Shown: in pieces, positions 2,719 through 62,280 of the stretch
How positions within the stretch are numbered: position 1 is the stretch's first letter
How the letters are laid out: the number at the start of each line of letters is the position of its first letter
Virus record (IMG/VR): IMGVR_UViG_3300027896_000014
Span: 81,244 to 145,243 of that record
Direction: 5' to 3' (one strand)
DNA length: 64,000 bases
Origin: a virus
The notes under the pieces: generated by a model
The model's database searches: none
Told to the model about the DNA's origin: nothing
Seen by the model: the letters and a program-made list of their open reading frames with translations, nothing else
Position numbers and translations under genes: made by a program

Positions 2719-5589
2719 TTACCCTCCAGTCCTTTTCAGATACTGCTGGATGGTTTCTCCGGGTAAACGTGACGCAACTTCTCCCGCCTGCCCTTGCTCT
2801 CCCACTGGATCAATTTTGTTCGCATCAATTCCAATGCCTTTGAGAATTTCACGGGATTTTTGGGATAAAAGTCTAAAATCTTTTGGCTTTCCCATTCCTG
2901 TCTCATATTGTGACTGTAAGGCTCCCAATCTTGATCCCATAAGTTCAATCGAACCGTCAATAAAAGCCTTCCACATTGTAGGAGTTGCAGTCGAGGGGTC
3001 GGTAATGGTATCGGCCCACGCCTTTATTGCCGGATCTGTAGCTCCACTTCTTTTGAATATACCTGCCATTTCATCCTTAACTGCATTAAACTTTGTCTTC
3101 ACACCCGCCACTGTTCCTTGTCTTGCAACCAATCCAGGGGTTACAGGAAAATATTTAGCCAATAAATTTACTGCAGCATTGCCTGTTACCCAATTACTAT
3201 TGGCAAGATCTTTCTGGGCATTAACTAAAGAATTAATATGTCCAACCGCAGTATTTAGGCCCAATATATTTTTTGCAGCAGTCCCAGAAGTAAAATCAAT
3301 CCTCAATCTCTGACGGACCGGATATTGAGTAGAATCGAAACTTGGATCATACAAGGCCGCCCTTGCAATAATATTTTTCCATTGTGGCGACCGTAAGGCG
3401 AACGAACTTGGATATGGGATTTTATAATCCACTAAATTTTTAATCACTGCTGCATCACTGGAGCTAAGCCCTTCCAATGCTGCTTCATTCCTTTGTCCGG
3501 GAAGACCAGGCGGAATTTCTCCAATTTCTGGTACTGCTACTCCTCCGCTTTGAATATCTATCTTCCTTTTTTTCTCGGCATCCAGTGTTCTCTGCGCCAC
3601 AATGGCCTCCGCAGTTGGTTTTCCATCCGGCCCCTTCTCTCCAGCTTTTGCAATAAGACCTAATTCGGTAGGAGATGGAACTGGCCTTTCTGCTCTCTTT
3701 ATTTCTGCTTGTTTGTCTAAAATTTCCTGATAGGTAGGTCTTCTATCAATCCCCTGCCTTTTAAGATCTTCCACGACTGCTCCTTTTGCTAATTCAAATT
3801 CGGTTGGAGATACCGCTCTTCCTTGACCTCTAGCCTCAACCGCAGCAACTCTCTCTTCTGATCCAAAGATTTTTTCTGGTATTCCCGCACTAATCCCGGT
3901 TAGGCGTGCTAACTGTTCCGTGAGCATTGGAATGTTTTTTAATGCCTCATCTCGCTGTATCCTTGCTGTCTTGGGGTTCTGAGACAACCCAAACCCCTGG
4001 GCTATATTTTTGTATTGGTCAAGCGATTTCTGGATTGCATCTATCGAAGGTTTAGTCTCTTCTCTGGCAACATCCATGATGCGCTCTTCAGGATGGACAT
4101 CGTAGTAGGTTGGTTTTGGACCCAATGAAGCCAGAGCTTGCTCTCGTCTGGTTTTTGCCCCCCCCTCTAACGTTGGCCTTAATGTCTCCAATGCCTCTTC
4201 CTGGGTAGGACGAACCCATCCTTTAGGAGTTGTAATTCCACCTTGACCTTCTGCACCGCGTATGGAATAACGGGTTTCTCCAGAGGGAAGAACTTCTTTA
4301 TTAATATCAGAAAGATTTCCCGATATACCGCCCTCTACCGGTTTGGTGGGTTCAGTCCCTGCGATCGGTGTCTGTTCCACCTTTTGAGCCTTGGGAACAG
4401 TCACAGTTGGCACACGAGAAGAAGCAAGAGATTCTATCGGAAACGCTGTTTTTAGCAGTTCCGCACGTCTTTTGCGCTCCTCTTCCGAAAGACCTTCAAG
4501 AGGATCAGGAGAAACTGCTCCTCCCTCTTGCCTTGACAATAGTGGTGTCATGCCAGGAGCCCCCGATGCCGCTTTTAAACGCTCGTATAAATCTGGCTCC
4601 TGAGCAATTCCATACTTCTTATTGTAAGCAGCCAACTGATCGGAACGAAACACGGGGGATCTCGTATTCTCCCTAAATGGAGGAGGATTTAATCCCTCCG
4701 TAACAGCAGGGGGTGGCGGAGGTGGTGGCGTTGCCGTATCGGTATCCGCCTGATCCGCATTACGCTGAGGAGCGTATGAGGCTAAAGAAAGTGTGGATGT
4801 CAGTGGTAGAGGCTTCGGTTCTAACGACTCCAAATTAGAAACCCATGGCGAGACATGGATAGGAGTAGACTTTAATAATGATGTGTTACGTCCCGCTTCA
4901 ATTCCTTGTTGGGTGGAAGCTCCCAAATTTTCATAAGAGGTCTCTTTAAAAAGGCTTGGATTAACTTCTCCACCCTCTTGCTTCGGGACAAGTGGAATTG
5001 TTGATCCAGCTTCCGTAGGGGTTGTCGTTAATGTTTGCTTCCCTTCCGGGGCAAAAGAACTCAACCCTCCCTCCGATGGGATATATTTACCCCCCTCCCA
5101 CCTACCAGCTTTCATTCCGGGTCTATAGTATATTGATTGATCGCTGAAAGACGGGTGCCCTGGTAACTTATAGGTATCTGGTAAATGTTCCGTTATACTC
5201 CTATGCCCTTTTAGCCAAGCTCCTCGGGTGTCATAAAAGTGTCTCGGATCATCTGGGTTTGGATTAAGTCCCATATTCTTTGCACGCTCTGCATACCATC
5301 CCTGGAAATTCTGCTCCATTTCAGGTGTAAACAAAGATTTCCAGTCCGGGGGTTGCCCTCCAGGGCTTACTTCTCCCCCGTCTTGTCTTGATTCCAACGG
5401 TATGACATTACCTTTTTTTGCAGGGAAGTATACTCCAGGGGCCGTCACTACTTCCGGCGCCCTCTCGGCTATCGTATAACCATGTGTCGGCTTCTGCACT
5501 TTCGGAGATCTTGGCTCCTTCAGGATATCCGAGAGGATATCAACCAGCCTCACATTCGTCCGTTTGTGCCAATCCTGTGATAGTTCCAT
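2719..5589 (-). CDS. Internal virion/ejection protein (956 aa)
   Basis: Position; long low-complexity N-half with three (R/K)QxGGxV motifs; helical C-half. Confidence 0.65.
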   Translation of the reverse strand: MELSQDWHKRTNVRLVDILSDILKEPRSPKVQKPTHGYTIAERAPEVVTAPGVYFPAKKGNVIPLESRQDGGEVSPGGQPPDWKSLFTPEMEQNFQGWYAERAKNMGLNPNPDDPRHFYDTRGAWLKGHRSITEHLPDTYKLPGHPSFSDQSIYYRPGMKAGRWEGGKYIPSEGGLSSFAPEGKQTLTTTPTEAGSTIPLVPKQEGGEVNPSLFKETSYENLGASTQQGIEAGRNTSLLKSTPIHVSPWVSNLESLEPKPLPLTSTLSLASYAPQRNADQADTDTATPPPPPPPAVTEGLNPPPFRENTRSPVFRSDQLAAYNKKYGIAQEPDLYERLKAASGAPGMTPLLSRQEGGAVSPDPLEGLSEEERKRRAELLKTAFPIESLASSRVPTVTVPKAQKVEQTPIAGTEPTKPVEGGISGNLSDINKEVLPSGETRYSIRGAEGQGGITTPKGWVRPTQEEALETLRPTLEGGAKTRREQALASLGPKPTYYDVHPEERIMDVAREETKPSIDAIQKSLDQYKNIAQGFGLSQNPKTARIQRDEALKNIPMLTEQLARLTGISAGIPEKIFGSEERVAAVEARGQGRAVSPTEFELAKGAVVEDLKRQGIDRRPTYQEILDKQAEIKRAERPVPSPTELGLIAKAGEKGPDGKPTAEAIVAQRTLDAEKKRKIDIQSGGVAVPEIGEIPPGLPGQRNEAALEGLSSSDAAVIKNLVDYKIPYPSSFALRSPQWKNIIARAALYDPSFDSTQYPVRQRLRIDFTSGTAAKNILGLNTAVGHINSLVNAQKDLANSNWVTGNAAVNLLAKYFPVTPGLVARQGTVAGVKTKFNAVKDEMAGIFKRSGATDPAIKAWADTITDPSTATPTMWKAFIDGSIELMGSRLGALQSQYETGMGKPKDFRLLSQKSREILKGIGIDANKIDPVGEQGQAGEVASRLPGETIQQYLKRTGG

Positions 5590-21738: not shown

Positions 21739-22698
21739 TTACGAGCTGGAAATATAGCAACCTTTTACCTTACCAGCTGTCGCTGTAAGGGGCCAAACGA
21801 GTCCGAGGCCAATGACTCCGTACCAGGCCGCTGAATTTAATCGCCCATGATCCTGTCCGAAGTTGACCTGCACTCTGACCTCCGGCGTTTCCGCCTCGAT
21901 CATGGCTGCGAAGTCGTCTCCGAAGATGATCCCCTCACCAAGAACCGATCCTGTCCCCTTGTTGTTGGCGAGACAGATCGTATCCTTGATCTCGATACAC
22001 CGGATGCTCTCAATCTTTCCAACCTCGGAGTTGTGGAAGACATCCCCTTCACGGAGATATTGCTTCCAGGTTTCAAAGTTATCGTCATTCTTGACCCCCC
22101 TCATCGCCTTTGTGGCGAGCAACCCAATATAGTCATCACCCTCATAGGGATCGACGATATAGGTGTCAGAAAAGGCATCCCTAATTGCTCCCAGGTGAGC
22201 GATGTTTACGTTCACAAGAGCCGGTGTGTCGGGTGCTGCAACTGCCGAGAAGGCTCCACCAGTCAGAGATGTCGGTTGATAGACGAGGTAGGTGGTCTTC
22301 ATAACGGTTGCCGCAAGTCGGTCCAGAGCCTTTGTCATCTGCTTTCTGAGGGCCTTCTGAATCGGGTCCTGCGGGTCGAATTTTCCAAGTAACTGGCTCA
22401 TGTGGCTAAACGTCACCGCACGGCCATACTCTGCCACGGTAATCGCCGTGGTGGACAAAGCAAAGTCATCCACGGGGATCCGATCGTGCTCCGAAAGAGC
22501 AGCACTTGTGGGCTGGGTCAAAAGATCAGCCCGGGTAAGGGTTTGTGACTCGCCGCGTTTCTTCCCGAAGCCAGGTTCGGTCCTGACGAAATCCATGAAC
22601 TTGGACTCGACAATAGACTGTTCCCGAAGCTTCGCGCTCAAAGCATTATTCTTGTAGACGCCTGTGGGAGCACTGAACTCCCAGGTGAAGTCTGCCAT
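21739..22698 (-). CDS. Major capsid protein (N4-gp56-like)
   Basis: 319 aa after the scaffold; ITV.EYG..V, EVG.IE.IR.IE, FG.D, D.GR....AWYG. Confidence 0.85.
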   Translation of the reverse strand: MADFTWEFSAPTGVYKNNALSAKLREQSIVESKFMDFVRTEPGFGKKRGESQTLTRADLLTQPTSAALSEHDRIPVDDFALSTTAITVAEYGRAVTFSHMSQLLGKFDPQDPIQKALRKQMTKALDRLAATVMKTTYLVYQPTSLTGGAFSAVAAPDTPALVNVNIAHLGAIRDAFSDTYIVDPYEGDDYIGLLATKAMRGVKNDDNFETWKQYLREGDVFHNSEVGKIESIRCIEIKDTICLANNKGTGSVLGEGIIFGDDFAAMIEAETPEVRVQVNFGQDHGRLNSAAWYGVIGLGLVWPLTATAGKVKGCYISSS

Positions 22699-23984: not shown

Positions 23985-24063
23985 TGGTAGCGGGGGTTAG
24001 ATTTGAACTAACGAATTTTCTGGGTATGAGCCAGACGCCCTAACCAGACTGGGCCACCCCGCA
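23985..24063 (-). tRNA. tRNA-Met(CAU), initiator-like, CCA encoded
   Basis: Full cloverleaf; U1xU72 mismatch, anticodon arm TCTGG-CTCATAC-CCAGA, T-loop TTCAAAT, 3' ACCA. Confidence 0.9.
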
Positions 24064-28129: not shown

Positions 28130-29548
28130 CTAAAACCTAAAGTCGTCTCCCTTCATGGCATTCACTTCTTTGATAATTTGAAGCACGTCCGTCTCGAACT
28201 TTGCAGGAAAGGAGCTATTGGCCATTTCGATCTGGGAAGCAATCTTACTGGCCGCATCTACTGCGGCTTTCGGAGTTTTCCCGTATCCCATCGCCGTCGC
28301 TACGACGTGATCACCCGGATCGAACCAATGGTCTCCTGCCTTTTGTACGATACGCCTGAATCCCATGTCTTTTCTTATTTCTTTCGGGAAATGAATCACT
28401 TCCCACGTCTTAATGTCATCGGTATAAACTCCGACCTGGGTGACATAGCCGGGCTCCACTTCCGCTCGGACGTTCTGACCGGCCGCAATCTTATAGGTAT
28501 ATTCTGGAAAGTTCTTTATGTATCTTGACTGAATCGCACCGCAGGGCCAGGCATCACGAGACGTTGGATCGTGGACTCTAACTTTCTTTCCGTCCCAAAA
28601 GAACTCAAAGCTGATATTGCCGTGATAACCGGATTTGATGAGAGAAGGCTTTATTTTGTTTAGGATATGCTCATCGATCCCATTCTCCTCCACCCAAACT
28701 CCGATTGTTCCCTCTCCTTTCACTTCTATCGTGTAGAGGAAAGGCCGGATATAATCCCTTCCATTGAAACCGACATCGACACCCAATTCTTTGCCTGGGC
28801 ATGATCGCTGAATCAAAATCTCAAGGTCCTCACGGAATGGCCCAAAACCGGCCTGTTCGAGCGCCACGGCCATCTGTACTCGATTTTTCACGCCCTTCCC
28901 TGTCTCTTTATTGCCTCTATACTCTCCAACTTTTGGGAAGAAGAGAGTCTTGCCATCGGTGTGTTTATCCATGTACTCAAAAGCCTCATCAAAACCATGG
29001 ACAACATCTCCATCGGGGACGCCGACGCCCATCTCTTGAAGCCGCTGCCATCCCTTCACACGGTTATTTTCATTCTCGGTCCACCAGAAGGAAGGACCAT
29101 AAACGATTTTCCCCTCATCACGCCAGATATCGGCATCCTTCCCGAAACAACAATCCGAGATATAAATAAAATCCTTTTGGGCAGCTTCCATCATGCTGTG
29201 GATCTTGTGAAGCCCCTTAAAGCCATATCCCGAGATTTGGTTCTCGATCGACGGGTAGGCTGCGGCACCGGCAATAAAGTAATACACTTCAAACTCCCTC
29301 ATGAGTGCCAGGGCGTGATCAATCCCTAAATTGGTGTCGATGAAGCCAACGGTCCGTGGCATTCCATGTTCCCGCTTAGGCATAGAAATAGCCTTGGTCG
29401 CTTTTGCCGTCTGATAATTGGCGATTTCTGCATAGGAATATCCCTCTTTGTGTGCCTCTTCGACCTTAAAACCCGTAAATCCAGCGAGATAAAAGGCTAT
29501 CTCCCGGTATGAATGACCCTCTTTTCTTTGGGCCTCGACATCGTACAT
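28130..29548 (-). CDS. PurD-like ATP-grasp ligase with ejection-protein-like N-terminal repeat
   Basis: VYGPS.....ENNR..G...L...GV.VP, F.EA.EY, F.K, ILIQ...PG.E.GV...FNG, GYHG.I, V.D.TSR.AWP. Confidence 0.7.
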   Translation of the reverse strand: MYDVEAQRKEGHSYREIAFYLAGFTGFKVEEAHKEGYSYAEIANYQTAKATKAISMPKREHGMPRTVGFIDTNLGIDHALALMREFEVYYFIAGAAAYPSIENQISGYGFKGLHKIHSMMEAAQKDFIYISDCCFGKDADIWRDEGKIVYGPSFWWTENENNRVKGWQRLQEMGVGVPDGDVVHGFDEAFEYMDKHTDGKTLFFPKVGEYRGNKETGKGVKNRVQMAVALEQAGFGPFREDLEILIQRSCPGKELGVDVGFNGRDYIRPFLYTIEVKGEGTIGVWVEENGIDEHILNKIKPSLIKSGYHGNISFEFFWDGKKVRVHDPTSRDAWPCGAIQSRYIKNFPEYTYKIAAGQNVRAEVEPGYVTQVGVYTDDIKTWEVIHFPKEIRKDMGFRRIVQKAGDHWFDPGDHVVATAMGYGKTPKAAVDAASKIASQIEMANSSFPAKFETDVLQIIKEVNAMKGDDFRF

Positions 29549-31356
29549 TATTGTCCCTCAAATGCGGAAAGGGGTCTACGCGTAGGTTCCCCTTCACCGG
29601 GGGCCAAAGCCCCGGGAACCAAACCAGCTCCACCGGCAGTCGGCGGAGGCGCCTGATCAAGTGCCTCTGCCTGGTCATCCGTCATAATGAAGTCCGGGTC
29701 ATGAAACCCGAACGCATTAACTTCGTGTTTTAGAAGCTTATACGGCTTAAAATACTTACCGAATGTGGAGCTTTCTGCCTGCTTAAGAAAGGCTTGATAC
29801 ATTTGAATAAGCTGACTATTCTTGATTGCGGCAGATATCCCCATGATCTTAATATCGCAATTGGCCTTCAACATCTCCTTGCGTTGTTCAATGGACATCT
29901 GAGCGAACTTTTGAGCATTCGGATTGTTTTTCATAACACGGGAAATACTGGGATCTGAGTATTCATTCCAGTTCAGGACCACTACCTCTAAAGCAGCTCT
30001 AATCGTATTGACCGCACCTTCTTCTATATCCTCACCTATTGAATCGAAGACTGTCATGGACTGACCGAGCAATATCTCAGCCTCTCCCTTTGTTTTTTGG
30101 CTTTTAGTTCCACGTTGGCCAGCTGCTAATTGAGTAAGCATTGAGGAAGCTTCCCGGCGTTGGTCCCAGTGTTGAAGCGTGGCCAGCGTTTCGTTGCTTG
30201 AGGGACTCGTGTAAACCTCCTTAACCACCGGTTGGCCAGGTGGCGCATCTTGCCTACGAAAGACCGTCTTACCAGGAAACATGGCAACATCCGTAGGGTC
30301 CTCGAGATCCATCCGGTTTAGTTCTCGAAGTTTATTGACCCGCCACGAGAGATCGTCGATATGGAGGCTCATTAAGTTGCAGCTATTAAGCCACAGAAGA
30401 AGAGAGGTCTCAATAACTCCGTGTCCCTCAAACGTAAATAAATCTGGAAGGGGGGAAAAAGATATGCCTGGCCATCGCATCGTCACGAAAGGATTTGGTT
30501 CAGGATTTCGGATCAAAACATCTCCTGCCACGGTAAACCTGGCATTATCGAGGAGAAGTTCTCCCGATTTATCCAAAATAACGCCCCAATGCTCGATCAA
30601 CCTCACGGCTTTTCTAAAACTGCTTCGTTGATAATATTGACCTTTCCTGCGGGCCCGTTTTTCCGCAGTTTCCTGGCCCCAGCTCGATTCATTGGCCGTG
30701 ACCTCATTCAACCTCACATACCGTCCACCGAGTTTTTTGACCTTCCATAAATCAAGCCACTCCACATGATCCCAGTAATCTCCCGACCATGGCTCCCGTG
30801 GCGATGCATCCGAATCCCGATAGATCTGCCATGGAGGAACGAGAGAAAAAACCAACCCCTTTCCTGGAACCCACCTCGGAATCATCTCATGGGATTGACC
30901 GATCGCAAAACCGAGTTCTGTTCCATCAGAAAACGCAGTATCTAGGTGGGCGTGTTGAGGATTGAACCAAAACTCAGAAGCATCTCTAAGGAAAGAGGCA
31001 ATCCATTTTTCATTCTCATCATCTGGATTCACCGCCTCGATTTTATACCAATCTGGCTGGCGAAGTGCTTTTCGGATAATCGCCACTCCCTGTTTAACCG
31101 TGGAGGTCATATCCCCAGTTGTCATTTTGGCCTGCCAATCTTCTTTCTCCGAATAATCAATATCTGCCTTGTAAGCCCTATAGCACTGATCCCAGAGATA
31201 TCTAACTTCTAAGTTGGCTTGCTCTGACTCCGTAATGCAGCTATGAGCGAAGTCAACAAATGTGTCAGGATCTTCGACACCATAAGCCGATGCTGCCTCT
31301 TCACGTTCCGCCAGCTCTTGATCATCCCACCCCTGGGTCCCTGCATCATTCGCCAT
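29548..31356 (-). CDS. Portal protein (podovirus type)
   Basis: 602 aa; W...YR.Y, V.PW.IY.D, (L/I).E.WG, G.G..E, T.GE..I pattern. Confidence 0.85.
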   Translation of the reverse strand: MANDAGTQGWDDQELAEREEAASAYGVEDPDTFVDFAHSCITESEQANLEVRYLWDQCYRAYKADIDYSEKEDWQAKMTTGDMTSTVKQGVAIIRKALRQPDWYKIEAVNPDDENEKWIASFLRDASEFWFNPQHAHLDTAFSDGTELGFAIGQSHEMIPRWVPGKGLVFSLVPPWQIYRDSDASPREPWSGDYWDHVEWLDLWKVKKLGGRYVRLNEVTANESSWGQETAEKRARRKGQYYQRSSFRKAVRLIEHWGVILDKSGELLLDNARFTVAGDVLIRNPEPNPFVTMRWPGISFSPLPDLFTFEGHGVIETSLLLWLNSCNLMSLHIDDLSWRVNKLRELNRMDLEDPTDVAMFPGKTVFRRQDAPPGQPVVKEVYTSPSSNETLATLQHWDQRREASSMLTQLAAGQRGTKSQKTKGEAEILLGQSMTVFDSIGEDIEEGAVNTIRAALEVVVLNWNEYSDPSISRVMKNNPNAQKFAQMSIEQRKEMLKANCDIKIMGISAAIKNSQLIQMYQAFLKQAESSTFGKYFKPYKLLKHEVNAFGFHDPDFIMTDDQAEALDQAPPPTAGGAGLVPGALAPGEGEPTRRPLSAFEGQ

Positions 31357-31391: not shown

Positions 31392-31435
31392 AAAAAAACC
31401 CCTTGCTCAAGGACTTTCGATCCTCAAACAAGGGG
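31392..31435 (-). terminator. Terminator/attenuator immediately upstream of portal
   Basis: CCCCTTG...CAAGGGG-TTTTTTT with nested hairpin. Confidence 0.7.
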
Positions 31436-31467
31436 TCTCAAATATCTCATTGAAATGAGGTTGGAGA

Positions 31468-31710: not shown

Positions 31711-32170
31711 CGGGGTTCTATCCTATTTCAATGGATCTAATTGATTCTATCCTTCCAACTTCGCCATTAAAAGGTGACATGCTTCTTAAATATTTAGCAT
31801 CGGCAGTCTGTTCATATCTTCGCTTTGACTGCTCATAATAATATTTCACTTTAGCATAGCTTTGTCCTTTCGTAGCTCTCCAAATCTTTCTCGATACCAC
31901 CCATAGCTTGATCCAGCTCATGTTACCCCCTTTCAAACAGCATCCCTTCATCACCGGCATCCGGTTCATGGTTTGAAAGCTGAAAGTCTTTTCGTAACGT
32001 TTAATCCGATCTGCGAGTGACATCTTTGTGCCTAAACCTCCTGCCCTTGTAGGCCTTGCGGTCCCGTAACCGTCTCTCACGCATTAACTTCGTGAATGTT
32101 TTGGCCTCGGAGAGGCAACGACCCACATACTTTTCAGTCTCTCTTTGATTAGACATTTTGCCTCACTCTT

Positions 32171-32699: not shown

Positions 32700-32929
32700 C
32701 GATCACACCTTTTCATGCGTCCTCCATTTTTAGTCGGCCGTTAATGGAATAATTACTTTCATATGACTCGGCCATCCAAAAATAAGCCTCTTCCTAGAAT
32801 TGTACTCCCAAATACAGTCAGAATCTTCTATACGCTCCCATCCTTCAATCCTACGGGCATCTGCGTAAACCTCATCGAGGGAGCGCTTTCTCCTGCATAG
32901 ACGACCAAAGGAAATTCCGAGTCCGAAAC

Positions 32930-33712
32930 TCATTCTTTCCTCTCCGGGATGTGAAGGACGTTCTGGCCACCAAATGCCAGTACGCCAAACCAGGCGATCA
33001 TCGGCATCAATAATCGGAGCTTCGGAGTTTGGACCTCCCTGAATATCAAGCCCTGATCACCGAAAACCACGCCATCACCTGAGAAACAACTTGGATCGGT
33101 ACACTTGATCCAACGAATATTATTATTGGTCTGTCCAACCTCTCCTTGGTACAAAACATCCCCTTCTTTTAGATATTTGCTCCAATTGAAAATCTTGGCA
33201 AACTGCTTGATCCTGCGTATCAGTCTTGAGCCACCGATACCGATGTAACTCATCCCATCGTAGGGTTCTGTTACGGAGTCCATATATCCGGAGACGATAG
33301 CCAGAGTCGCTTCCATCTCGGACCATTTAGCTCGAGGAATCAATCTCTTTATTAAAACTCTGGATCTGGTAATGTCCACGGAACCTAATCTCAAGGCATG
33401 GGCGCAACAACGGTCAAGAACAGTTCTTAGTTGTCGGATCAAGCGCTTTTGTATTGGATTTGCTGAATCAAATACTATAAACGGTGTGAAATTGGCCGGC
33501 AGGTTAAGGCCACGCCCTACCTCAGCTACTTTAATAGGAATCTTTCTTATCCTTCTCGTCGTCTTGTCAAATCGCTTTACCACTTCCTTTTTAGGATCGA
33601 CGGCGGCCGCAAACTGGACTATTTCGGCCTGCCTAATAGCCGCATACCTTAACGCTGAAGATGCAGGATTACACTCAAAATAGCCTTCTCCATATTCCCA
33701 TCTCCAAGTCAT
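32930..33712 (-). CDS. Diverged, shortened paralog of the major capsid protein
   Basis: Colinear motifs shared with 21739-22698 (see finding). Confidence 0.75.
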   Translation of the reverse strand: MTWRWEYGEGYFECNPASSALRYAAIRQAEIVQFAAAVDPKKEVVKRFDKTTRRIRKIPIKVAEVGRGLNLPANFTPFIVFDSANPIQKRLIRQLRTVLDRCCAHALRLGSVDITRSRVLIKRLIPRAKWSEMEATLAIVSGYMDSVTEPYDGMSYIGIGGSRLIRRIKQFAKIFNWSKYLKEGDVLYQGEVGQTNNNIRWIKCTDPSCFSGDGVVFGDQGLIFREVQTPKLRLLMPMIAWFGVLAFGGQNVLHIPERKE

Positions 33713-33739
33713 TTCTTCACCCTCCTCGCACTCCCATCC

Positions 33740-34129
33740 TCAGCTATGCGATCCCTGCGCCCGATATCCAAAGATAAAATTTGGCTTCTCATCAGCACGA
33801 TCACAAAAGGTCTTCCAAAAAGTTATTCTCCAAATCTTTTCGCCCGGAACACCACTTTTATTAACTTGCCAAAGCAATGACACATCACGAACCGGAAGAC
33901 CATAATCATGCAAAGCTGCCAGTGCCCCAAATCCATTCGCATCGTCAGCCGTTGCGATAAGGTCTATCGTCGGCCTATCATAGCTGTGTCCCTTACCTCC
34001 CTGACAAGATTGACATGTCTCAAAACACTTTGCATGGAGAACCCGCACGGCAAATCTAATCCCTTGATCAAGCTCCTGATACCAAGCCTCTGACGCCATA
34101 TGGTCTCTAATCGGAACCTTATTTTCCAT
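33740..34129 (-). CDS. Conserved hypothetical phage protein
   Basis: LD.GI..AV..L....ET..SCQG..GH motif. Confidence 0.6.
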   Translation of the reverse strand: MENKVPIRDHMASEAWYQELDQGIRFAVRVLHAKCFETCQSCQGGKGHSYDRPTIDLIATADDANGFGALAALHDYGLPVRDVSLLWQVNKSGVPGEKIWRITFWKTFCDRADEKPNFIFGYRAQGSHS

Positions 34130-34266
34130 CTTTCACTCTTCTTAAGCTCCCATCCTCAGCCACATAGTATTCCTGACCGTTCATATCAGTCCAGGTTTCT
34201 CCCGGCTTTAAGAACTTACATTTATCCCTGAAGTCCAAGGTGCAACCCTTCTCATGTGGGTCGTGG

Positions 34267-34527
34267 CTATGGGGATGGAATGGCTTTTTGTCCCGTGGTA
34301 GCATGGTTATCCTTCCCTTCGTCCTCTTGTTTAACGATCCTCAGTATTTTTTCTTCGGCAATTCGCATAAATAGGTGAAATTTGGATTCGAAGTCATCTG
34401 CCGGCACTCTCATTTCAAAGTTGTGTTCTATCTTCCCACCAACCTTGGCTTTAACAGAGCAACGTATGTGCCCTGCAGGAAATTCTTCCGGTCTGACTCT
34501 CACGATAATATCATCAAGAATTCTCAT
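34267..34527 (-). CDS. Hypothetical protein
   Basis: RBS AAGGAG, coupled to neighbours. Confidence 0.5.
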   Translation of the reverse strand: MRILDDIIVRVRPEEFPAGHIRCSVKAKVGGKIEHNFEMRVPADDFESKFHLFMRIAEEKILRIVKQEDEGKDNHATTGQKAIPSP

Positions 34528-37785: not shown

Positions 37786-39366
37786 CAGATCCTCCTTTCA
37801 CAATTTTTTCACGGTTCGTTCACAGTCAAAGCAATAAGACCTCTTCTTTCCATTATCGTCATCAATTACCTGCACATTCCCATGCCTCCCAAGCCGGCAA
37901 CCTGTCTGTCTATACCAATATTTACCAAACGAATCATGCCAGAGGTAGGAATTCTTCCAAAATCTTCGATGGAAGAGCCTCCAGCCACACCAATTACCCG
38001 CGGGGTAACGATGAAACAAACTCCACCAGATATCAGCATTTTCACGACAAGCACCCATGGCCTATCCTCCTCTTGATCCATTCCTTCACCCGGATCAAAG
38101 CAACCCCAACTTTCCTTGTCCAGAATAGCCTAAAAAGCTGCCGATAGGTCGGAGTTGGTCTCTGCATCTGGTAAAGCCGAATCTCATTCTTAATCTTATT
38201 AAACTCCTGCTTTTTTAGTTTGACCCTGACCCGCCTTCCACTCGGGAGAACCAGCTCCATTGATAACATCTTCCCTCCTCAATTATTTTTCAAACCTACA
38301 ATTCTCGAATTTAATGACCTTTATATCCGAGCCAATCCAAAATCCACATTCGCTAAAACAATGTGGACATCTCATAATCTGAGAAATCAATGTATCGAAT
38401 TCCCAACTTTTATTGCAATAACGACAAATCATATGTTGCATTTTTACCATTTTGGAAGTTTCGCCCTCCTCTTCGCCTCCGGTACGACCCGATGCACCAG
38501 TAGGCACTCTATGTCAAGGATCGACCAACCAGAAAGCATCTTCAGGATGCGTACCTCCATCTTGTCGAGTTTGGTAGGTGCCAACCGTTTCTGTTCACTT
38601 GCCGTTGAAATGCTCCGCAAAGCCCCTGCTGTCAATTCGGCTGAGACAGATCCAAGATGTTTCAATGTTCCAGCATTTAGCCTTTTCACTTCACGAGCAT
38701 ATTTAGTAAGCTTCATTTTCTTCTCCCCTGGTAATCCAGATTCACCACATACGACTTTGCCAAATTCTGGGGTTCTACTCGGTCCACCGAGGATGGTACT
38801 TGCCCACACTTCGAACACTTGTAGGGGAATGGATTCTTCTTATCCACCACCAGAGCCTCGAGCTGACCGCCACAATAATTACAGAAGGCTTGAACCTCAT
38901 CGTCCACTCTCAAACTCCTATTTCTCTCCCACAACGCTTGCAGACTAAATAATAATTTTCTGTATCCAACATAGCTTAGATCACAGAGCTACACTTACAC
39001 TTCTTAAGCTCCTTCTCTTTAAAAGCATGGCAGTCTTCGATGGGGAGCGCTATAAAAGTTTTTCCAATCTCTGGATTCCATTCACGAATATGTCCTTGAG
39101 CACAATTCACTCTGTTTTTGTCAAACTTGCATGTCGTGCAATCTCTCATTTAACCCCCCGCTATCTTTCGCCACCTCTTGACCATTTCTAAAACTTTCAA
39201 AACTTCATCATTCCATTCCTTTCTAATGGCTTCTTCACGCCCCCACATTTTAAAGAGCCAGGTAAAGCTAAGATAGTCTTCCTGGTCCTGAATTGGTATT
39301 AATCTCCCAAATAATTGATTGAACCATCGATACGGTGTTCTCCATTTTTTAACGAGAATAACCATC

Positions 39367-40977
39367 TCATCGTCTCCCTTGGCTTTTATGCAATCCGATA
39401 TTGACAGCGTAGGATTGAGCTAATTTTTGGGGCGGCGGCATATCCGCGGGCTTTGTACGCCTTTGCGTAACCATTGAACAATAAACGACCGCCTCACCTT
39501 TGTCGGGGGATCTTCCCAGCCTCCTCTTGAGTCCGGCAATCTTCACCCCATCAGCCCCGATCTTATCCTCTTTTGACTCGATCAGAATCCCCCCAGGAGT
39601 CAACATCCAGAGTGGAGCACATAGATCAGCTTTCAGTTCAGGGTCTGAAGGTAGAGCCACTTTGTCACCCATCAAAGGGTCCAAACTCTCCCGAAATCTC
39701 CACCACATATAGGACCGCATATTACGGAAACGATACTTCTGGGTGGCCTTGTCGGTCTTTCCCTCGAGTCCCTTTGTCCCGCCAGAATCTATTGCAATTA
39801 CTTGTACTTTAACGTTTGTCTTTAGAAAGTCTACCACGGCTCCGCCTACTCCAATTCCATCAACATGGATCGGTGCCCCATCACGCATAGCTTCAATAAC
39901 CTTACCGGCCGCTGATTGGCCATCGGGCGTCTGTACTCCGGGATAGCAGATTAAAGGAGAGTACCAAGTGCCATATCTCGTGGAGATCACGGTTCGGTCA
40001 GTCCCACCTCGAGCCACATCAACCCCTATAGAATCCATGGCCCCCTTCTTCCCATCCTCTTTCCAGCGAGCCTGGGCTGCCTCAACCCATAATGTGGGGA
40101 TGACCTGCCACTCTGAGTCTTTAATACCGGCCTGAAAGTTCCCCTCACGCATTTGGGAACGGAGGGGCTCAGGAGATGCATTGAGCACCACTTCATAGTT
40201 CGTGCCCAGCAAGAAAGGATTATCTTCTAACTTTGAGGGGATAAAGGTTCGAGACATCGGCTTAACCATGACGCCTTTGACCCGGATCGGATTCCCACTT
40301 GGAAGCTCTACGTCCTTCCCATCGATGGTGGTATACCAACGGAGCTCGCCAGGTTTGGCAGGGTGTGGATGCTTTGAATCGATCCAGGGACCCCAAAACT
40401 GGATAACCCACCTTCCTTGTTCGTCCACAGGAGGGTTACCCGTACAAACGATTCGGCAGCGTTGGCCCTGGACGGTTGTTCTAAGCCAAAGGGAAAGGAA
40501 GCGGAACTGATGCTCAATGAAGTTACAAATTTCGTCAAAGCCGAGGAAGTCATGAGGGCGCCCTTGCCATCGTGTCTCATCACCAGGGTCCTTACAGCTA
40601 CCAAATTCTATCTGCCGGTCCGGAAGTCTCCAGATCAGTTGCTGAGAATTCCAACCATCCCGGGTGGCCAAGATCTCTGCCAATCGATCAACCAGTGCCA
40701 CCGTCTGCGTTGCCTCACGCCTAAAGATAATCGACCGCCTATGTTCGGTGAGGCTAAGGCCAAGAAGAAGATCGCTCTTGGACCCGCCGGCAGCTCCCCC
40801 AAAGAATAGGATATCTGCGGGGTTCTCCAGAGCATCCATCTGCGTCCCAGGAATCGGCGTCCACAATGGATGCTTCAGGCTTACCAAAACCTCCCGTTGC
40901 AGATCCTGGAGTTCGTCGGAATTCAACCGCTCTAAAATATGCGAGAGTTCAATTATTTGTTTGGCTGAGGATTGCAA
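39367..40977 (-). CDS. terL: Terminase large subunit
   Basis: Walker A GGAAGGSKS, Walker B FLGFDE, TGNP coupling motif, nuclease GVDVARGG.D and SPD. Confidence 0.95.
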   Translation of the reverse strand: MQSSAKQIIELSHILERLNSDELQDLQREVLVSLKHPLWTPIPGTQMDALENPADILFFGGAAGGSKSDLLLGLSLTEHRRSIIFRREATQTVALVDRLAEILATRDGWNSQQLIWRLPDRQIEFGSCKDPGDETRWQGRPHDFLGFDEICNFIEHQFRFLSLWLRTTVQGQRCRIVCTGNPPVDEQGRWVIQFWGPWIDSKHPHPAKPGELRWYTTIDGKDVELPSGNPIRVKGVMVKPMSRTFIPSKLEDNPFLLGTNYEVVLNASPEPLRSQMREGNFQAGIKDSEWQVIPTLWVEAAQARWKEDGKKGAMDSIGVDVARGGTDRTVISTRYGTWYSPLICYPGVQTPDGQSAAGKVIEAMRDGAPIHVDGIGVGGAVVDFLKTNVKVQVIAIDSGGTKGLEGKTDKATQKYRFRNMRSYMWWRFRESLDPLMGDKVALPSDPELKADLCAPLWMLTPGGILIESKEDKIGADGVKIAGLKRRLGRSPDKGEAVVYCSMVTQRRTKPADMPPPQKLAQSYAVNIGLHKSQGRR

Positions 40978-62112: not shown

Positions 62113-62185
62113 GCCCCTGTAGCTAAAAGGATATAGCAAATGGTTGCTACCCATTTTGTTCCCGGTTCAAGCCCGGGCAGGGGCA
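62113..62185 (+). tRNA. tRNA with GCU (Ser) anticodon but class-I, Arg-like body
   Basis: All four stems perfectly paired; 5-nt variable loop; no encoded CCA. Confidence 0.85.
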
Positions 62186-62280
62186 CACCTATTTACAAAT
62201 GGCACAGATAAACTTTTTTGTCAAGCAAATAATGCTTAACCGGTCACGCAAGTTTTTCTTTTCACAATCTAAAATAATGC

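Follow-up and report, generated by a model that had tools for sequence, protein, structure and literature searches.

A short, optional paralog of the major capsid protein in the terminase-to-portal island of a phage

Gene content of the locus

The window, i.e., the whole 64,000-nucleotide stretch of viral DNA analyzed here (positions 81,244 to 145,243 of IMG/VR record IMGVR_UViG_3300027896_000014), encodes two related capsid-type proteins, both on the minus strand. One is the phage's own major capsid protein (MCP; 319 aa; pI 5.35; positions 21739 to 22698), which matches PF25209 (Phage_capsid_4; 28.3 bits against a cutoff of 27) and phrog_1357 ("major head protein") and has a weak, below-cutoff match to TIGR04387 (N4-gp56 MCP). 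The other is a short MCP paralog with a predicted HK97 fold (260 aa; pI 9.8; positions 32930 to 33712). A Shine-Dalgarno-like GAGGAGG (positions 33721 to 33727, minus strand), read directly from the sequence, lies 8 nt 5' of the paralog's ATG, and the paralog's stop codon overlaps the start of the 67-aa gene downstream (ATGA). A promoter scan gave no signal above the shuffled expectation.

The original prediction had the coordinates, strand, and lengths of both ORFs right and described the shorter one as colinear with the MCP. BLASTP bears this out, aligning residues 1 to 248 of the paralog with residues 4 to 299 of the MCP (E value, 1e-25; 25% identity). All of the motifs listed in the prediction are present in this alignment (PY.G..YIG, W..YL.EGDV...EVG....IR.I, FGD.....E..TP..R, and AW[YF]GV), and gaps fall at the two loops that it had described as missing from the paralog (NNKGTGSV and NFGQDHGRLNS). 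A profile alignment of 19 short relatives (alignment A1) against 16 MCPs (alignment A2) was also highly significant (probability, 100; E value, 1.3e-56), and phmmer searches with the short paralog matched MCPs of 312 to 328 aa as well. The 260-aa ORF is a full-length homolog of the phage's own MCP.

Searches of Pfam, PHROGs, NCBIfam, and PADLOC gave no match for the paralog and none for its small neighbor genes, and all 19 short family members lack a Pfam match at an E value of 0.01. Among 50,697 cultured-phage records, tblastn returned zero matches for the paralog and 34 records for the MCP, with a single matching place in each.

The paralog is part of an accessory island whose upstream end is the large terminase gene (TerL; 536 aa; positions 39367 to 40977, minus strand), named by way of a 57%-identical paralog elsewhere in the contig (PHROG terminase families) and by synteny with TerS. 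A terminator-like hairpin with a 20-bp stem and a T run (positions 31395 to 31439, minus strand) closes the stretch from TerL through the island before the portal gene (602 aa; positions 29548 to 31356, minus strand), so the placement of the paralog upstream of a portal terminator is correct. Its distance from the head operon had been put at about 10 kb; 11 kb separate the start of the paralog from that of the MCP gene, which lies downstream. The slot that it occupies is bordered by two conserved genes, one of 61 aa on the left (positions 34119 to 34304, minus strand) and one of 67 aa on the right (positions 32730 to 32933, minus strand). A 129-aa ORF between the left border and the paralog (positions 33740 to 34129, minus strand) is confined to this phage among the loci compared; it was considered as a possible capsid-like protein and ruled out by comparison, being not MCP-like.

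The gene order in relatives is TerS, TerL, small genes, the 61-aa gene, the paralog, and the 67-aa gene, then a Thg1-like gene (in many relatives, not all), followed by the portal, other genes of the head module, and finally the MCP, immediately preceded by a head-module protein (394 aa) that is a putative scaffold judging by its position. The slot is syntenic in the TerL-portal island of at least eight related contigs, and the relatives' islands and surroundings carry Thg1-like, DNA methylase, PDDEXK, and Acb2/Tad1-type genes. The left-border gene adjoins the paralog in relatives and adjoins the right-border gene where the slot is empty. A two- or three-gene module made up of the paralog and its small flanking genes was rejected, since the flanks are kept when the paralog is absent; these flanking genes are conserved within this phage group alone and not in more distant contexts. 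The distant short paralogs sit outside head modules: P0019 and P0020 adjoin AAA_24 and AAA_25 replication or recombination genes, and P0018 lies directly after an Acb2_Tad1_hairpin gene.

Several other features of these contigs were recorded. Genes of the Acb2_Tad1_hairpin type, a family of cyclic-nucleotide sponges, immediately precede a distant short paralog (L011:90-323) and also occur upstream of TerS in a close relative (L005:1378-1614). A 120-aa ORF in the window (positions 31718 to 32080, minus strand) aligns over just 44 residues (68 to 77% identity) with the 228- to 251-aa Thg1-like genes of relatives, so the Thg1-like gene appears truncated or degraded in this phage, as does that of L054 (68 aa). 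In the 67-aa right-border gene and its homologs (L032:14572-14757, L003:10804-11016, L005:10801-11004, and L007:10729-10992), the first ~21 residues (MSFGLGISFGRLCRR...) are nearly invariant, and the C-terminal halves are of two unrelated types, one in the window and L007 and the other in G001, L003, and L005. A 73-aa Zn-ribbon protein (positions 38713 to 38934, minus strand), with homologs in L003, L005, L007, and L059, ends in ...PQNLAKSYVVNLDYQGRRK, closely resembling the C terminus of TerL (...PQKLAQSYAVNIGLHKSQGRR). The terminase frame of L007 (L007:2253-6017) spans 1254 aa, ~312 aa of which align with the TerL of the window (84% identity); this points to a large in-frame insertion that may be an intein or a homing element. 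Two tRNA genes were also noted: tRNA-Met (CAT; positions 23985 to 24063, minus strand), within the head module just upstream of the gene preceding the MCP, and tRNA-Ser (GCT; positions 62113 to 62186, plus strand), close to the window end.

The 145-kb record from which the window was taken is composite. Outside the window, at 5000 to 66900 of the record (G000:C1; L048 to L051), the opposite strand carries a second complete head and packaging module, at about 7.5 to 61 kb, whose TerL is 57% identical and which also encodes a phrog_156 portal, a different major head protein (phrog_334), and internal virion proteins (phrog_511). On either side of this module stands a copy of SbcC-like and RecT-like genes, the two copies being 86% identical, and the 88-kb relative G001 matches the record outside the second-module block alone. 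Two phages have been joined in this record, either by chimeric assembly or as a true cointegrate, and the phage that owns the paralog is probably ~85 to 90 kb long. An association of the paralog with larger genomes (145 kb versus 88 to 94 kb), considered with regard to capsid size, was dropped, since the 145-kb contig is a composite that includes the second module. An exact 127-bp direct repeat lies near, not at, the record ends (G000:C1:1-127 and 144991-145117); its length is a common assembler k-mer, and it may be an assembly trace of circularity.

Predicted fold and trimmed loops

The AlphaFold2 model of the paralog, built with alignment A1, is confident (pLDDT, 88.5; pTM, 0.85), and that of the MCP is weaker yet usable (pLDDT, 76.8). 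Foldseek searches of the PDB with the paralog returned exclusively HK97-fold phage capsids and encapsulins (E value, ~1e-6), and VIA-align gave a Z score of 13.6 and an rmsd of 3.7 with 223 of the 260 residues aligned, in agreement with an HK97-like fold. T4 gp24, the HK97 prohead, and encapsulins were tied within one Z unit; of these, T4 gp24 (1yue) had the most aligned residues (Z score, 13.2; 234 residues). The ESM Atlas and BFVD returned just ordinary capsid proteins for the paralog, the top BFVD match being an N4-gp56 family MCP (1.3e-10).

In the models, the paralog retains the spine helix, the cores of the A and P domains, and an N-arm made up of a helix and two short strands. Its losses are concentrated in loops. 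The E-loop hairpin, which spans approximately residues 51 to 97 of the MCP (~47 residues), is reduced to residues 46 to 64 of the paralog (~19 residues); this is the biggest deletion (~27 residues) and was absent from the loops originally listed. According to the profile alignment and the models, the paralog also lacks ~9 residues of the A-domain loop (NNKGTGSV) and ~9 residues of the P-loop, at the turn of the long P-domain hairpin (NFGQDHGRLNS). In HK97-type shells, the long loops (E-loop tip, P-loop, and A-domain loop) tie subunits and capsomers to one another. A family-specific basic tail with a conserved NVLHIPERK motif takes the place of the MCP's C terminus. In the syntenic subfamily, conservation is lowest in the E-loop remnant and highest in the C-terminal strand and this tail.

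This architecture would suit an optional vertex (penton) subunit, or a modifier of capsid geometry, that replaces the MCP at fivefold positions and changes the stability, size, or shape of the head. The N-arm and the full HK97 core are kept, T4 gp24 is among the tied top structures with the most aligned residues, and short E-loops are known in pentamer-only encapsulin shells, which were also matched structurally. The paralog is shorter than the MCP, as is the Jabs penton paralog MCPp (257 aa), and its 25% identity to the MCP resembles that of the satellite protein Ccm to its capsid protein (24%). Its gene also lies between the terminase and portal genes on the same strand, and a change of head shape could matter if this group, with its SU10-type portal, has prolate heads. 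We nevertheless consider a vertex role, the main rival of the explanation preferred below, somewhat unlikely in light of the distribution of the paralog among relatives.

Distribution, exchange, and age of the paralog family

Relatives were retrieved from metagenome and virus collections with the portal as the query, i.e., independently of the paralog. Of the loci that carry the two border genes, four have the paralog (the window, L072, L077, and L008) and three have an empty slot (G001; L059, with a 137-bp gap; and L073, with a 190-bp gap). G001 (88 kb) is the closest relative according to the MCP (MCP, 94% identical; portal, 93%; TerL, 84%) and has the same island, in which nothing separates the 59-aa and 61-aa border genes, their ends overlapping at ATGA. 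Another relative, G002 (93.8 kb; CheckV, 100%; MCP, 86% identical), has no paralog, and there the island is absent, with ~1.5 kb from TerL to the portal. As the MCPs of these relatives, where available, are 86 to 94% identical to that of this phage, the empty slots imply that the MCP must build complete shells, including its own pentons, without the paralog. The paralog is a dispensable, optional accessory gene in a fixed slot. The empty slots exclude an essential penton role, and their occurrence in relatives with a 94% identical MCP contradicts the suggested minor capsid component insofar as it would be obligatory.

Where it is present, the identity of the paralog is uncoupled from that of the backbone. 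The window and L054 share a portal at 95% identity and a paralog at 45%, and the corresponding values for L052 and L055 are 98% and 41%; the pair L007 and L008 has a 90% identical portal and a 96% identical paralog. In nucleotide sequence, the window and L054 share ~85% identity beginning at the portal and patchy similarity in the island, with no detectable similarity across the paralog ORF. Divergent versions of the paralog are exchanged between backbones and replace one another in a conserved slot, rather than just changing quickly by point mutation.

These patterns weigh against the vertex subunit introduced above. An otherwise intact slot lacks the paralog in relatives with a 94% identical MCP, and versions of 41 to 45% identity within backbones of 95 to 98% portal identity are hard to fit to a near-invariant hexon lattice. 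In cultured phages with this MCP family, each genome has a single MCP-like place, and distant members of the paralog family lie in replication modules. Phage SU10, whose portal family (PF23899) was seen in one relative here, uses a single MCP for both the pentamers and the hexamers of its prolate head (PMC9509320).

The near identity of the relatives' MCPs also bears on interference. A factor that co-assembles with and poisons the capsids of co-infecting relatives or of capsid-hijacking satellites would show the accessory, diversifying behavior typical of conflict genes, its MCP-like core could enter foreign capsomers, and Ccm provides a case of an MCP homolog used as a weapon. However, the relatives' MCPs are 86 to 94% identical, so the producer would be poisoned too. 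The dominant-negative action against related phages that had been proposed is unlikely for the same reason, their MCP being nearly the same as that of this phage, and we regard interference as a whole as very unlikely.

A scan of 1.84 billion representative proteins gave 40 matches, of which ~16 clusters at 50% identity are short forms of 239 to 284 aa and the remainder are mostly MCPs of 312 to 328 aa. The paralog has at least 19 intact relatives (239 to 284 aa); the 19 aligned short forms all have uninterrupted frames despite a divergence of up to 70%, and their alignment contains 17 invariant columns. Omega for the paralog is 0.16 to 0.20 in pairs with unsaturated dS (dS is saturated in most pairs), compared with 0.06 to 0.09 for the MCP, portal, and TerL of the same genomes. 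The 96% identical paralogs of L007 and L008 give an omega of ~1, from very few changes. The paralog is under purifying selection (dN/dS, ~0.2) and is not decaying. That the gene is optional and that the L007/L008 pair has an omega near 1 are what one would expect of a decaying duplicate without function, but full-length frames in 19 of 19 members at up to 70% divergence, the low omega over longer distances, the invariant columns, the confident AlphaFold model (pLDDT, 88.5), and the strong ribosome-binding site make this explanation extremely improbable.

A branch with 100/100 support divides the short forms from the MCPs in a maximum-likelihood tree, so the paralog did not arise by recent duplication of this phage's MCP. 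It belongs to an old family that separated from the MCP lineage before the sampled MCPs diverged. Along the path between the window and L003, the tree gives ~1.2 substitutions per site for the paralog versus 0.11 for the MCP. The two lineages also differ in charge: the syntenic subfamily is strongly basic (pI, 8.5 to 9.9; net charge, +3 to +18), the MCPs are acidic (pI, 5.0 to 6.4; net charge, -2 to -14), and the more distant short forms are acidic.

The basic character of the syntenic subfamily, set against the acidic MCP, could point to another nonvirion role acquired after duplication, such as that of a regulator or chaperone of the acidic MCP or of a scaffold, or that of a nucleic acid binder acting through its positive charge. 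Conservation along the protein is greatest in the helix of the N-arm and in the family-specific C-terminal tail, and the strong ribosome-binding site together with the translationally coupled downstream gene suggests real expression. The acidity of the distant members, however, means that the charge is not family-wide, and one would not expect a housekeeping assembly regulator to be missing from half of the close relatives or replaced by versions of 41% identity. We consider such a role unlikely.

A possible capsid mimic and comparison with known systems

The explanation that we prefer, with less than even confidence, is that the paralog mimics the capsid in soluble form and engages a variable partner, a host capsid sensor being the likeliest. 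Having kept the HK97 core and the N-arm and trimmed the long loops that tie the lattice together, the paralog would stay outside the shell as a soluble look-alike of the capsid and would bind a variable partner that would otherwise meet the real MCP. This partner would most likely be a host capsid-sensing defense protein, which the paralog would block or occupy. We favor the mimic because the gene is optional, is swapped between versions, lies in an island rich in counter-defense genes, and has kept its core with the lattice loops trimmed, all of which are usual features of conflict genes. The non-head contexts of the distant members and the reversed charge of the syntenic subfamily are further points in its favor. 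The decoy role raised in the original prediction fits this accessory, allele-swapping behavior within a counter-defense island; the solubility of the protein, its binding partner, and its anti-defense effect are our inferences.

Several points count against a mimic. The weakest point is that a protein with 25% identity and the opposite charge is a poor surface copy of a near-invariant MCP, when one might expect a decoy to follow the surface of its model. The paralog shares its strand with the terminase gene upstream of it and could be expressed late, together with the MCP, and the argument from its neighborhood is one of guilt by association. Moreover, the characterized MCP paralogs found in the literature (T4 gp24, Jabs MCPp, and SaPIbov5 Ccm) are all pentons built into the capsid, and our literature search found no phage-encoded capsid-fold decoy or capsid-fold anti-defense protein.

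In a broader form of the mimic explanation, which we regard as possible but doubtful, phages would draw on a pool of interchangeable, stripped-down capsid look-alikes that serve as a counter-defense by occupying or blunting host immune sensors triggered by the MCP, and the deep allelic diversity of the pool would mirror the diversity of the sensors. If true, it would be the first case in which a protein serves as a decoy for a structural-protein trigger.

Second capsid genes in tailed phages have hitherto been explained either as parts of the capsid (T4 gp24 and Jabs MCPp) or as a satellite weapon (Ccm). The paralog family differs in that it has no Pfam or PHROG model, is optional among near-identical shells, is exchanged as deeply divergent versions, and is placed among accessory or replication genes, a behavior typical of conflict genes. 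If its members are capsid mimics, capsid-sensing immunity would have a phage-encoded countermeasure; if they are optional vertex subunits, capsid composition can vary between near-identical phages.

With the phage's own MCP (PF25209; N4-gp56-like), the paralog shares the N-arm, the spine helix, the A- and P-domain core, and most of the invariant residues. It differs in being 59 aa shorter, ~11 times faster evolving, reversed in charge, and equipped with a new C terminus, and in being optional and encoded outside the head module, with no family member passing any Pfam model. Like encapsulins, which are among its tied top structures (Z scores of ~12 to 13), it is a protein of ~260 aa with an HK97 fold and a short E-loop. 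The similarity is in structure alone, the sequence kinship being with the MCP lineage of this phage; the paralog has no Pfam encapsulin match, and no cargo gene was recognized next to it, its neighbors having no family match.

SaPIbov5 Ccm is 24% identical to the helper capsid protein, takes penton positions, and redirects assembly from prolate to isometric heads (PMC8569155). Like Ccm, the paralog is an accessory MCP homolog with ~25% identity that is unneeded for normal capsid formation. Ccm has a cleaved N-terminal delta domain, which the paralog lacks, and Ccm is satellite borne and used against the helper, whereas the paralog occupies a syntenic slot of the genome of the phage itself.

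T4 gp24 and Jabs MCPp resemble the paralog in being second, shorter HK97-fold MCP paralogs encoded by the phage itself. T4 genes 23 and 24 are adjacent. In the Mycobacterium phage Jabs, MCPp (257 aa) and the hexon MCP (594 aa) are encoded by a pair of consecutive ORFs (72 and 73), and Jabs MCPp, like T4 gp24, is a phage-encoded, penton-specific MCP paralog (Jabs, bioRxiv 10.64898/2026.07.24.740622). Unlike these two proteins, which are regular parts of the capsid, the paralog described here is encoded 11 kb from the MCP gene and is hypervariable, and, contrary to what would be expected of a penton paralog, it is not kept wherever its partner MCP is kept, the MCPs of the relatives being 86 to 94% identical.
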